Of a stretch of 64,000 nt of DNA, positions 24,001 through 27,000 are shown piece after piece. Made by a program: the position numbers. Position 1 is the stretch's first letter. Every line of letters begins with the position of its first letter. The stretch lies in NCBI RefSeq assembly GCF_055900595.2, contig NZ_CM148325.1, one strand, 5' to 3'.

Positions 24001-27000
24001 TTACCTTCAGGTTGTCGCAATGGCATCGGACATCCGGTGTCGGATAACTAAACGTAGCGTTAAGGCGATATTGCTGAGAGACCGGTTAAGTGGTTGCACG
24101 GGAGTAATGAGTTTGGGGAGGGTACCAGAATGTCAGTCTGGTGCGGTATGCTGGCAGTATCACGTTGATTACAGCATAAAGTAACGAGAGACGAATGGAA
24201 GTTAAAACCAGAGCAGTTCCGTCGTTGTTCATCCCGGGAGACGCTGGAAAAAGTGATTTCCCACACACGTTATAAACTTACCCCTGCGGAGCTGGAAGCC
24301 TTTAACTCTGCGGTCGATCACCGGCTGGCAGAACTGACAATGAACAAACTTTACGATCGCGTGCCGGCTTCCGTCTGGAAATATGTCACCTGAATCTTGA
24401 ATCCGCGCTACGATGACTCCGGTGTTATCTGTGCACCGGAAGATCGGGAACATTAAGCAGTATAACGGCAACAAAGAATTCGAAATCAAAAGGGAATGGT
24501 GTACAGAGGGGCAGGCGTTCAGGCATTACCGGCCTGTATCTTCTGAAGGGGACTCGTATTTGTCGGGGCTGAGTATTCCGCTCGATTCGATCACGGATTG
24601 GCGGAATACCTGACTGTGATTGATTCAGGTACCATTTTGCAGGGAGCCGGTGCGTTACTGTCTGGCACAACAAACGCAGCGGGTCGCTCTGCCCCGCCGA
24701 TTCCTGATAATCCCTCCTCTGTAACCTACTGCAACAGTACAAATACACTGACGCCTGAAACGGTAACCAGAATCAGCACCAGCAGTAACGTCAGTAAACA
24801 GAGCAGACGATCGGTCTTCCGGTAATAACCGAAGGGGTCGACAGCGCCACAATACGGGCAACATACTGTATTATGAGTAATTGCGTTACCACAGTCCCTG
24901 CACTTCTTTTTGCATATCACGATCGCTCCCTCTCCACGCCTTATCCGTAACCTGTTTTTTACATTAAAAAAACAACGCCGGGAATTCAATCGTCAGTCCG
25001 GCGATGACCGTTCGGGTTATCACAGAGTGCCTGAGACAGTGTCCTGCCGGAGGTCACCTCAGGGGCTCTGCGCATTTTTTACGACGTGGTTATTCCGTAT
25101 GAACCATACGGAGATTTAACCATGACCTACAAATACAACCCCTTCTGGCAGCAACGTATTCGTGAGACGGTGCGGCACGCACTGAATGTTCATTCCCGCC
25201 TGACGGCATTGCGGGTTGACCTGCGTTTCCCGGATGTACCGGCAGCAACGGACGCAGCTGTGATATCCCGCTTCATCAATGCCCTGAAAGCCCGAATCGA
25301 CGCTTACCAGAAACGTAAGCATCGGGAAGGTAAACGCGTGCATCCCACAACCCTGCATTACGTCTGGGCCCGGGAGTTTGGGGAGTGCAAAGGTAAAAAA
25401 CACTATCACCTGATGCTGCTGGTCAACCGGGATACCTGGTGTCGTGCCGGCGATTACCGCGCTCCGGGATCACTGGCCGGGATGATTAAACAGGCGTGGT
25501 GCAGTGCCCTGGGAGTGGATGCCGGACGTTATGACACGCTGGCACATTTTCCGGTCAGGCCGGCGGTGTGGCTGGAACGCGATGATGACACCGGCTTTCA
25601 GCAGGTGCTGGAGCGTGCTGACTATCTGGCGAAGGAGAGTACCAAAGCTTACGGCACCGGTGAGCGCAACTTTGGCTGCAGTCGTGGCTGAGCCCGACAG
25701 ACGACTTATCTGACCTTAGTGTGATGACGTGTTCACAGCGACCACACTGATTTTCCCTTCTGAGACTGAACTGAAAACCGCCATTCACACCTGACCACGC
25801 TGCCCGTACCGGGACGGCTGTTGCCTGTGTGTCGTCTGGCGCAGAGGAACATATACTATGTACGCAAAATCTTTTCTCGCACTTGATGGCAACGGACGTC
25901 TGACCGGTGCCCGTACCGCACAAACTGCTCCTTATGCCCACTACACCTGCCACCTTTGCGGCAGTGCACTCAGATACCACCCGCAATACGACACCGAACG
26001 GCCCTGGTTTGAACACACTGACGACGGGCTGACGGAGCACGCGCAGCAATGTCCTTATGTCAGGCCGGAACGCAGAGAAATACGGTTGATTAAACGTCTG
26101 CAGCAATTCGTCCCGGATGCCTTACCCGTGGTACGTAAAGCCAGCTGGTACTGCAGGCAATGTCACCACGATTATTATGGGGAGCAGTACTGCACACACT
26201 GCCAGACCGGGCGTTTCAGTGAGGAGGGGGTAGCAGAATGAACGGTATAAAAACGGGGCTGGGGATCACGCCGGGTGAGCACATTATCAGTGCCGACTCT
26301 GCGCTCAGCAGAAATATCCGGCATTGTTTCTGCCTTTCCTGTCATGGCCGGTTGATTCTGCAGACAGATGCTCAGGGGGCGTGGTTTGAGCATGATTTAC
26401 ATGCCCTGAGTGAGCAACAGAAGGGTAAGCGTGCAGCAAAAACCGTATTGACGGGGATGTGTTATTCAGTCGGCAGTGCTACGCGCCAGGGGAGCAGTTC
26501 GCCGACCCGGTTTATCGGCCAGTCGGCTATGACGTCAAGGACATAGCGGAGGTAGCTTTCTGGCTCCACTCCGTTCAGTTTGCACGTCCCGATCAGGCTG
26601 TACAGCAGCGCTCCCCGCTCTCCTCCATGATCCGAACCGAAGAACAGGTAGTTTTTGCGGCCCAGACTGACCATCCGCAACGCATTTTCAGCGATGTTAT
26701 TGTCCGCCTCAGCCCAGCCATCATCTGCATAGTACGTCAGCGCCGGCCACTGGTTCAGGGCGTATGCGAACGCTTTCGCCAGTTCTGAGTGTCGCGACAG
26801 GGTTTTCATCTTTTCACGCAGCCAGCTTTCCAGGGATTTCAGCAGCGGTTTCGTTTTCAACTGACGTTCGGCAAGGCGCTGCTCCGCCGTCATTCCCCTT
26901 ATCTCTGCCTCGATGGCGTACAGTTCGCCGATCCGTTTCAGCGCTTCCTCCGTCAGGGCTGACGGGGTGCGAACGTGCACATCGTGGATTTTACGGCGGG

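Follow-up and report, generated by a model that had tools for sequence, protein, structure and literature searches.

A number of described proteins share parts of their plan with the small island gene analysed here. The type I toxins Hok, Ldr, TisB, and Ibs are likewise shorter than 70 amino acids, with a single transmembrane helix, and are encoded by monocistronic genes located in mobile elements. An antisense RNA that overlaps the toxin gene controls toxins of this type, which, to our knowledge, contain no zinc ribbon. The ElaB, YqjD, and YgaM proteins of E. coli follow the plan predicted here, with a cytoplasmic N-terminal domain and one transmembrane helix at the extreme C-terminus, but have no sequence relationship to the present product; they have approximately 100 residues and a DUF883 domain, and lack the Cys motif. 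Two CxxC knuckles at the extreme N-terminus, some 10 residues apart, then a basic linker and a single transmembrane helix, are also found with the generic zinc ribbons Zn_ribbon_3 (PF13248), UPF0547 (PF10571), and Zn_Ribbon_1 (PF13240), and in PHROGs 38187, 14275, and 10292. Some members of the present family match the Pfam zinc ribbons with E values of 1e-3 to 3e-4, under the gathering thresholds. The proteins of these PHROGs are longer (136-178 amino acids) and have an extra C-terminal domain, whereas the small protein stops at its helix.

The backbone of the island has long been known (CP4-57, SRL PAI, PAI-pheV type), and the gene itself is already catalogued, as uncharacterised, by both RefSeq and UniProt. 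The record WP_032144956.1, or A0A2G9A3D9_ECOLX in UniProt (hypothetical, Enterobacteriaceae), is identical in sequence, occupies the same locus, and thus represents the same gene, while the sister alleles WP_001297900.1 and WP_001347328.1, both named "zinc-ribbon domain-containing protein", have the N-terminal 39 residues and the synteny in common with it.

A sequence-only reading of the window (the whole stretch of 64,000 nucleotides analysed here, from contig NZ_CM148325.1) had proposed a small zinc-ribbon membrane protein with a GTG start, of a type easily missed by annotation. This last point did not hold, given that RefSeq calls the gene in every intact copy examined. The gene is real, although already catalogued, and its predicted product is a tiny, membrane-anchored zinc-ribbon protein. 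The best explanation, to which we assign a probability of roughly 80%, is that of a genuine small protein-coding gene of the CP4-57-like island backbone, with a putative zinc ribbon, a predicted tail anchor and, in the window allele, a probable GTG start.

Island Context and Distribution

The window is 100% identical to the E. coli Nissle 1917/CFT073-type island, a pathogenicity island of the pheV type; in Nissle 1917, the small CDS has the locus tag CIW80_RS26420, and is described as a "hypothetical protein" (WP_032144956.1). The small ORF holds a fixed place in the backbones of P4-integrase/CP4-57-like islands, where the gene order, in both E. coli and Salmonella, is AlpA-HTH, a hypothetical protein of 190-200 amino acids, hha, the small ORF, the divergent yfjJ-like gene, and the DUF7828 zinc-ribbon genes. 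This synteny is maintained in all the sampled loci with flanks not interrupted by insertion sequences (IS), and the yfjJ-like gene adjoins the small ORF in all those in which this neighbour is still in place, while a Hha-family gene occupies the convergent position in most of the sampled loci. The features of the locus are presented in Table 1. Signs of decay are also found nearby, including a second zinc-ribbon gene cut by IS66, tandem IS66 fragments, and the truncation of hha.

Table 1. Coordinates of the small gene, its predicted elements, and its neighbours in the window.
Feature	Position	Strand	Remarks
Small CDS	24726..24923	-	65 codons plus stop, as annotated in RefSeq; 100% identity to the CDS of NZ_CP022686.1
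Putative four-Cys zinc ribbon, codons 8-25, C8-x2-C11 ... C21C22-x2-C25	24849..24902	-	ITHNT conserved between the knuckles
Juxtamembrane motif YYR(K/N)TDR, codons 33-39	24807..24827	-	Y33, Y34, R35, T37, D38, and R39 invariant in alignment A2
Predicted C-terminal transmembrane helix, A-type, codons 40-64	24732..24806	-	KD19 2.97; one residue beyond the helix
ATC at the position of the family ATG start	24921..24923	-	Start-codon mutation in the window allele
GTG (Val2 in ATG alleles), likely initiation codon here	24918..24920	-	Read in the sequence; GGGAG ends 5 nt upstream
Shine-Dalgarno-like GGAGAGGGAG (GAGGAGGGAG in ATG alleles)	24926..24935	-	Sequence and allele comparison
YagK/YfjJ ("inovirus Gp2 family") neighbour, divergent	25122..25691	+	Pfam YagK_YfjJ_C, E = 3e-48; RefSeq
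Truncated hha/ymoA-family pseudogene, convergent	24214..24393	+	RefSeq annotation
Divergent intergenic region shared with the yfjJ-like gene, promoter/leader region, hairpin-rich	24924..25121	.	93% mean column identity, 14 alleles

The gene is carried by 3,497 of the 5,426 complete E. coli genomes, with a median of two copies, and the exact protein of the window is found on approximately 988 public contigs. The family is narrow, being found in E. coli and Shigella and, rarely, in Salmonella and Klebsiella. A HMMER scan of 1.84 billion representatives returned 47 matches, and a scan of species-representative contigs recovered no other species except in a single low-coverage Paenibacillus contig of 683 bp, which was discarded as evident E. 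coli contamination. The same scan of representatives also recovered a few analogous proteins combining a zinc ribbon with a transmembrane segment, in unrelated gene contexts. In E. coli K-12, the CP4-57 (yfjJ) and CP4-6 (yagK) regions lack the small ORF. The collections of plasmids and phages yielded only a handful of matches, mostly in records of 0.8-4.9 Mb, a size which suggests mislabelled chromosomal sequence. A search of the literature recovered nothing on the small protein, whether expression, proteomic, or functional data.

Start Region and Condition of the Window Allele

The minus-strand ORF, its CRDCGN and CCPYCG motifs, and its hydrophobic tail are all present exactly as originally described, and the reading of the sequence confirmed the 3' edge at 24726, where the ORF ends in a TAG stop codon (24728-24726). 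The 5' edge was misplaced, given that position 24914 belongs to the codon of Cys4 rather than to the GTG, which sits 6 nt further upstream, while the annotated start is 9 nt upstream. On the minus strand, the sequence ...GGAGAGGGAG (24935-24926) is followed by CG, by ATC (24923-24921), and then by GTG (24920-24918), after which the codons are ATA TGC AAA AAG AAG TGC AGG GAC TGT GGT AAC. The product initiated at the GTG would have 64 amino acids, V/M-ICKKKCRDCGNAITHNTVCCPYCGAVDPFGYYRKTDRLLCLLTLLLVLILVTVSGVSVFVLLQ.

In most alleles, the start consists of AGGAGG followed by an ATG, the codon immediately before the GTG. The GTG start proposed previously is plausible for the window allele only, with GGGAG 5 nt upstream, and does not represent the norm of the family. 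An ATG is found at this position in L004-L008, L013, L015, L020, and L022-L025, and an ATC in L001-L003 and L021. The RefSeq CDS of the window allele begins at the ATC, a start set by homology, while the GenBank entry for the strain clone D i2 adopts the GTG version of 64 amino acids. Given the replacement of ATG by ATC, translation of the window allele most likely starts at the next codon, GTG, probably at reduced efficiency. The small gene would be transcribed as a monocistronic unit, divergently from the yfjJ/yagK-like Rep-family gene, and scans for consensus sequences found neither a sigma-70 promoter for the ORF nor an intrinsic terminator downstream. A suspected GC-rich hairpin on the 3' side of the ORF was rejected, as its folding was no better than that of shuffled sequences (z = 0.36).

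These features raise the question of whether, in a real family, the window copy has lost efficient translation and is decaying into a pseudogene, with an ORF that is open only for lack of time. This is the strongest of the rival explanations, although we consider it doubtful. In addition to the loss of the ATG, R4C (CGC>TGC) produces, at 24913-24915, an ATG in another reading frame, which opens an ORF of nine codons and could divert ribosomes. One ATC-haplotype copy (L002) is frameshifted, a quarter of the sampled copies are disrupted (4/16 frameshifted or IS-cut), and the neighbouring island genes have decayed too (hha, the IS66-cut zinc-ribbon gene, and the IS66 fragments). Against this, the GTG at codon 2, preceded by its GGGAG, represents a serviceable start, and three distinct ORF bodies, all intact, are found with the ATC haplotype, namely the A-type of L001, the variant linker of L003, and the C-type of L021. 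The closest ATG allele (L020) is separated from the window ORF, aside from R4C and the start codon, by two synonymous sites only.

Predicted Structure of the Product

The product of 64-65 residues is predicted to be an N-in, tail-anchored protein of the inner membrane, with a cytoplasmic zinc ribbon of 39 residues. Residues 1-39 would form a basic cytoplasmic domain, composed of the putative four-Cys zinc ribbon (CxxC-x10-CxxC) and the YYRxTDR motif. Its two CxxC knuckles (C8-x2-C11-x10-C22-x2-C25), arranged as in zinc ribbons of the Zn_ribbon_3/UPF0547/zf-ChsH2 type, would bind zinc, and all four cysteines are invariant in the nine canonical alleles (9/9). No family was assigned by profile searches of the window protein, in which the generic zinc-ribbon models of Pfam remained sub-threshold (UPF0547, 15.4 bits for a cutoff of 29; Zn_ribbon_3, 13.9 bits for a cutoff of 27), as did the rubrerythrin-like domain of NCBIfam (13.1 against 32), with no NCBIfam family above its threshold. 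The lowest Pfam E value among 12 family members was 2.7e-4, also below the gathering thresholds in score. Given these sub-threshold scores, the term "zinc ribbon" is a motif-level call. The search of PDB sequences returned nothing meaningful, and no relative was found.

The C-terminal part, residues 40-64, would be one transmembrane helix that practically ends the protein. The best 19-residue Kyte-Doolittle mean of the tail (KD19) is 2.97, compared with a maximum of 0.4 in the other five frames, and among 20,000 shuffles matched for composition, only one produced an open frame as hydrophobic as this, which means that the tail exceeds chance. As in tail-anchored proteins, a single hydrophobic helix lies within the last ~30 residues, with the positive charges on its N-terminal side (seven Lys/Arg ahead of the helix and none behind it), and the product has no signal peptide. 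The AF2 model, based on an alignment of 12 sequences, places a helix at residues 30-64, with a pLDDT of ~90 over residues 41-60, and of ~50 over residues 1-34, the zinc-ribbon half.

A small, monocistronic gene with a C-terminal transmembrane helix, which is often inactivated and lies in a mobile island that also holds toxin-antitoxin and anti-restriction cargo nearby, may also be read as encoding a membrane-active toxin, or an abortive-infection or exclusion effector. Like type I toxins or the small membrane peptides of phages, it would depolarise the membrane through oligomers of its helix, with the zinc ribbon as the trigger or sensor. The conservation of Ser in the outer helix half and a weak likeness to the N-termini of phage proteins (phrog_38187, E = 8e-6, plus phrog_14275 and phrog_10292) are consistent with this reading, which we nevertheless consider improbable. 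Thousands of genomes contain an intact copy and no evident cognate antitoxin, and PADLOC found no match for the small protein, the yfjJ-like protein, DUF7828, or the 190-aa neighbour. No Rfam family was found in positions 22000-27000 (E <= 1), a scan that would miss a novel sRNA, the only antisense promoter-like site equals the expectation from shuffled sequences (1.0), and no conserved antisense or convergent ORF overlapping the small gene was found.

Allele Comparison and Evidence of Coding

The ORF is conserved in 12 of the 16 copies sampled. The check proposed with the original reading, the conservation of the frame and its start region in related sequences, gave a positive result, with the ORF keeping its syntenic position in alleles with as little as ~80% DNA identity, as well as in Salmonella. 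In the N-terminal 40 codons, dN/dS was 0.14-0.17 between the window and the B-type, 0.18-0.25 between the window and the C-type, and 0.19-0.23 between B and C, values equal to or lower than those of the yfjJ-like neighbour (0.21-0.33). The variable columns at codon positions 1, 2, and 3 numbered 9, 5, and 21, respectively (p = 0.0026; nine canonical alleles). In the L003-L005 lineage, dN/dS was 0.6-1.0, and this codon-position bias was absent.

The C-terminal 25 codons differ by 35-47% at the DNA level among types A, B, and C, and yet each of the types encodes a helix with a KD19 of 2.86-2.99, which was reached by no more than one in 20,000 shuffles, and by no other frame. This 3' half lies outside the conserved block, and keeps its frame, its length (within two codons), and its helix. 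Coding is thus well supported, as the zinc-ribbon half is under purifying selection and a transmembrane tail has been retained, findings that also support the original interpretation as a small zinc-ribbon membrane protein.

The adjacent intergenic region contains inverted repeats, with a fold z of -5.8 for the plus-strand RNA, and has p-distances of 0.02-0.13, in comparison with 0.08-0.25 for the small ORF. The test for covariation in these hairpins found no compensatory pairs, the region being too conserved for it to be informative. That the ORF is fortuitous, its 5' half being conserved as the edge of a non-coding block (promoter, operator, or origin of the yfjJ-like Rep-family gene), would agree with this better conserved, hairpin-rich neighbour, with the narrow taxonomic range and lack of a family assignment, and with the lack of expression data in the literature, but is very improbable in view of the third-position substitutions and low dN/dS of the 5' half, the helix kept in three diverged versions of the 3' half, and the conservation of the canonical ATG and AGGAGG.

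Possible Role and Significance

For a genuine gene encoding a tail-anchored protein, a role as a membrane tether or small regulator can be suggested speculatively, and this suggestion is tentative. In the cytoplasm, the zinc ribbon would bind nucleic acid or a protein of the island (for instance, the YfjJ-like or a DUF7828 zinc-ribbon protein), and helices would associate through their conserved, Ser-rich end (VSxVSV). A more specific proposal, which we regard as a long shot, is that the small protein is the partner of the yfjJ/yagK HUH-Rep-like gene and the ultra-conserved, hairpin-rich intergenic module, in which case it might tether a replication or mobilisation intermediate of the island, or the Rep protein, to the inner membrane or, alternatively, might detect DNA that invades the cell and set off a response at the membrane. 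If this were true, the small protein would be an undescribed component of the maintenance, mobilisation, or defence of CP4-57-type islands.

The finding matters little on its own, and its value is modest. The present analysis supplies evolutionary evidence of the translation of the small gene, and the Nissle/CFT073/ST131 allele, which has lost the canonical ATG, offers a natural system in which to test GTG or near-cognate initiation, as well as the homology-based annotation of small ORFs. Few uncharacterised small membrane proteins are as widespread in E. coli, pathogenic or commensal, as the predicted product, whose gene occurs in approximately two thirds of the complete genomes, frequently more than once.

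Reading frame and annotation

The sequence-only reading described a possible small zinc-ribbon membrane protein on the minus strand, and the Shine-Dalgarno-like sequence, GTG, cysteine motifs, and hydrophobic helix that it quoted are all present. The open reading frame (ORF) was correctly located, but the left edge given, 24914, falls at the codon of Cys4, and the GTG is 6 nt upstream of that. Translated, the frame reads (I)VICKKKCRDCGNAITHNTVCCPYCGAVDPFGYYRKTDRLLCLLTLLLVLILVTVSGVSVFVLLQ. The best 19-residue Kyte-Doolittle mean (KD19) of the tail is 2.97, compared with <=0.4 for the remaining five frames, and an open frame as hydrophobic was found in one of 20,000 shuffles, so the tail is not an artefact of composition.

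Coordinates of the small ORF and its surroundings
Feature	Position	Strand	Detail
hha/ymoA-family gene	24214-24393	plus	N-terminally truncated, annotated pseudogene
RefSeq CDS of the small ORF	24726-24923	minus	WP_032144956.1
Stop TAG	24728-24726	minus	frame open up to this point
Out-of-frame ATG	24915-24913	minus	opens MQKEVQGLW*
GTG	24920-24918	minus	then ATA TGC AAA AAG AAG TGC AGG GAC TGT GGT AAC
ATC	24923-24921	minus	preceded by a CG spacer
Shine-Dalgarno-like sequence	24935-24926	minus	GGAGAGGGAG
Intergenic region	24924-25121
Palindrome	24953-24974		TGTTTTTT-N6-AAAAAACA
Leader of the yfjJ-like gene	25015-25130	plus	two hairpins
yfjJ-like gene	25122-25691	plus	Shine-Dalgarno GGAG, ATG at 25122
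Remnant of the second DUF7828 gene	adjoins 25858-26241		RefSeq pseudogene
IS66-family tnpC frames	26462-29097	minus	two in tandem, one truncated

The expectation that annotation would miss the gene does not hold. E. coli Nissle 1917, the CFT073-lineage strains ABU 83972 and clone D, and ST131 EC958 all match the region at 100% identity. The RefSeq record of Nissle 1917 already includes the ORF as CDS CIW80_RS26420 ("hypothetical protein"), with ATC as the first codon, the exact protein is found on ~988 public contigs and in UniProt (A0A2G9A3D9), and a GTG-initiated version of 64 aa was deposited as i02_3342 from strain clone D i2; the gene was thus not missed. For the related Shigella SRL island, however, the table in PMC6980539 of the original annotation from 2001 shows no ORF between the yfjJ and hha homologues.

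Evidence of coding

The last ~25 codons of the ORF occur in three versions, A (that of the window), B, and C. In the first 40 codons, dN/dS (Nei-Gojobori) is 0.14-0.17 between the window and B-type alleles, 0.18-0.25 between the window and C-type alleles, and 0.19-0.23 for B versus C, values equal to or lower than those of the yfjJ-like gene at the same loci (0.21-0.33). At the first, second, and third codon positions, the nine canonical alleles, which retain all four cysteines, have 9, 5, and 21 variable columns, respectively (p = 0.0026, chi-square test). The tails (A = LLCLLTLLLVLILVTVSGVSVFVLLQ, B = IVTILLALIIVVLLTTVSVSVYILCSW, C = IFTALLALLVVVLLVTSAVSMYVLW) differ at 35-47% of the DNA, and the sequence downstream is essentially unalignable; the frame is kept, nevertheless, with ends within two codons of each other and a helix KD19 of 2.86-2.99. 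In most alleles the start is a textbook one, an ATG five nt 3' of AGGAGG. These four lines (dN/dS, codon-position bias, retained transmembrane tail, and translation signals) all argue that the ORF is coding.

It is very improbable that the ORF is non-coding and simply carried along by a conserved non-coding block. The upstream intergenic region is indeed better conserved than either flanking coding sequence (93% mean column identity across alleles, where the flanking genes differ by 5-25%), but such a block explains neither the codon-position pattern nor the transmembrane tail, which falls outside it.

Start codon of the window allele

Four changes separate the window allele from L020, the closest allele with an ATG: ATG>ATC, CGC>TGC (R4C), and two synonymous sites. 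RefSeq places the start at the ATC by homology. The adjacent GTG is Val2 in all alleles, and is mechanistically the better candidate for initiation here, because GGGAG ends 5 nt 5' of it. For this allele, then, a GTG start is reasonable, although the ancestral start of the family is a different one.

The R4C change, found only in the window allele among those sampled, creates an out-of-frame ATG and a 9-codon ORF just inside the gene, which may compete with the GTG start and could reduce expression. Effective silencing of the window copy is possible, though less likely than not. The upstream haplotype that accompanies the ATC is distinct (GGCGTGGAGAGGGAGCG) and precedes A-type, variant-linker, and C-type gene bodies in four copies, three of them intact; this indicates recombination and suggests that the haplotype is still tolerated.

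Predicted product and function

Residues 1-39 contain seven Lys/Arg and the pairs C8-x2-C11 and C22-x2-C25, the four cysteines being invariant in the canonical alleles, together with an invariant ITHNT between the knuckles and an invariant YYRxTDR directly before the membrane helix. Residues 40-64 are a predicted helix, followed by one residue. The positive-inside rule, and the need of Cys4 zinc sites for a reducing cytoplasm, predict an N-in, tail-anchored protein. The AF2 model, built on a shallow alignment, bears out the helix (pLDDT ~90) but not the ribbon (pLDDT ~50). Several generic zinc-ribbon models of Pfam and NCBIfam match below threshold and none above, so the "zinc ribbon" is a motif-level assignment, which places the protein in no named family. 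The closest proteins by architecture are phage families of unknown function (phrog_38187, 14275, and 10292; E down to 8e-6), which share the ribbon-plus-helix N-terminus but run on into a further domain.

The gene forms a monocistronic unit. Defence-system models fit neither the protein nor its neighbours, no known RNA family was found around the ORF, no antisense partner is evident, and no paper mentioning the protein was found in the literature. The leading reading, at a probability of roughly 0.3, is a small membrane tether or regulator, whose ribbon, on the cytoplasmic side, would bind a partner; the conserved Ser-containing end of the helix (VSxVSV) would make helix-helix contacts. Less probable still is the main functional alternative, a toxin or exclusion peptide acting on the membrane.

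Divergent intergenic region

The conservation of the intergenic region suggests a dense regulatory or origin function; a covariation test recovered no compensatory pairs, and is uninformative. The leader of the yfjJ-like gene has a strong fold of two hairpins (-48.4 kcal/mol, z = -5.8; none of 200 shuffles as good), and the opposite strand folds less well (z = -3.9). The Shine-Dalgarno and start codon of this gene are buried in the second hairpin (arms TCCGTATG/CATACGGA, extended), whose arms are invariant in 14 alleles and whose loop carries a 5-nt indel. The hairpins could be a translational control element, or DNA hairpins of an origin that the HUH-Rep-like protein recognises.

The perfect palindrome, ~30 nt 5' of the Shine-Dalgarno of the small ORF, is nearly invariant across alleles. 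One possible role is that of an operator; another is a share in a weak promoter, as TTGAAT on the strand of the ORF precedes TTTAAT or TAATGT by 15-17 nt.

Distribution and island context

A 261-nt query covering the ORF matched 3,497 of 5,426 complete E. coli genomes, nearly always on the chromosome, in a median of two and a maximum of six places per genome. Sixteen copies, one from Salmonella, were sampled across the identity range, and wherever the flanks are free of IS the ORF keeps the same place, ~200 bp from the divergent yfjJ-like gene and convergent with an hha-family gene, which is intact in some other islands. In E. coli K-12, yfjJ and yagK are present and the small ORF is absent. 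Beyond E. coli and Shigella the family is rare, with single entries from Salmonella and Klebsiella, and 1.84 billion representative proteins yielded only 47 matches, for the most part truncated or fused forms of this gene. The species-representative genomes gave no match apart from a 683-bp contig (NZ_WACP01000054.1, 0.59x coverage) of the Paenibacillus tengchongensis assembly, which carries the variant-linker allele of the E. coli island segment and is almost certainly contamination. Distant look-alikes of 67-78 aa with a zinc ribbon, basic linker, and transmembrane helix (P0084 and P0077, from the metagenome contigs L017/L018 and from L019), P0084 in a plasmid- or ICE-like context (ParA-like, DotM_C, and PLD-nuclease genes), suggest that this architecture recurs on mobile elements, their homology being unproven.

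The surrounding 40 kb is a pheV-type pathogenicity island with iha, a sialic-acid cluster, and IS66 copies. Its CP4-57-like backbone runs through two DUF7828 zinc-ribbon genes, the yfjJ/yagK-like "inovirus Gp2" gene, the small ORF, the hha pseudogene, an AlpA-like HTH gene, a 190-aa hypothetical, yfjI, a GTPase, and Ag43, beyond which lie cbeA/cbtA and the kps capsule genes. The IS66 tnpC frames sit inside the second DUF7828 gene, an insertion that is evidence of backbone decay.

Frameshifts (L002, L022, and L024) or an IS3 truncation (L025) have broken four of the 16 copies sampled, and the variant-linker lineage (L003-L005) has an altered linker, a dN/dS of 0.6-1.0, and no codon-position bias, L005 also lacking Cys25. 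The gene is therefore dispensable and eroding in some islands, as is usual for the genes of cryptic elements. It is also a recombination mosaic (L001, L002, L003, and L021 versus L020, L004, and L015), the breakpoint between conserved and variable DNA being the zinc-ribbon/transmembrane junction.

The observation of the small ORF is confirmed and its interpretation as a zinc-ribbon membrane protein supported, with the start codon and the annotation claim corrected. The gene is ordinary, already catalogued and uncharacterised; all that is mildly unusual about it is the start, ATC/GTG, of the Nissle/CFT073/ST131 allele.
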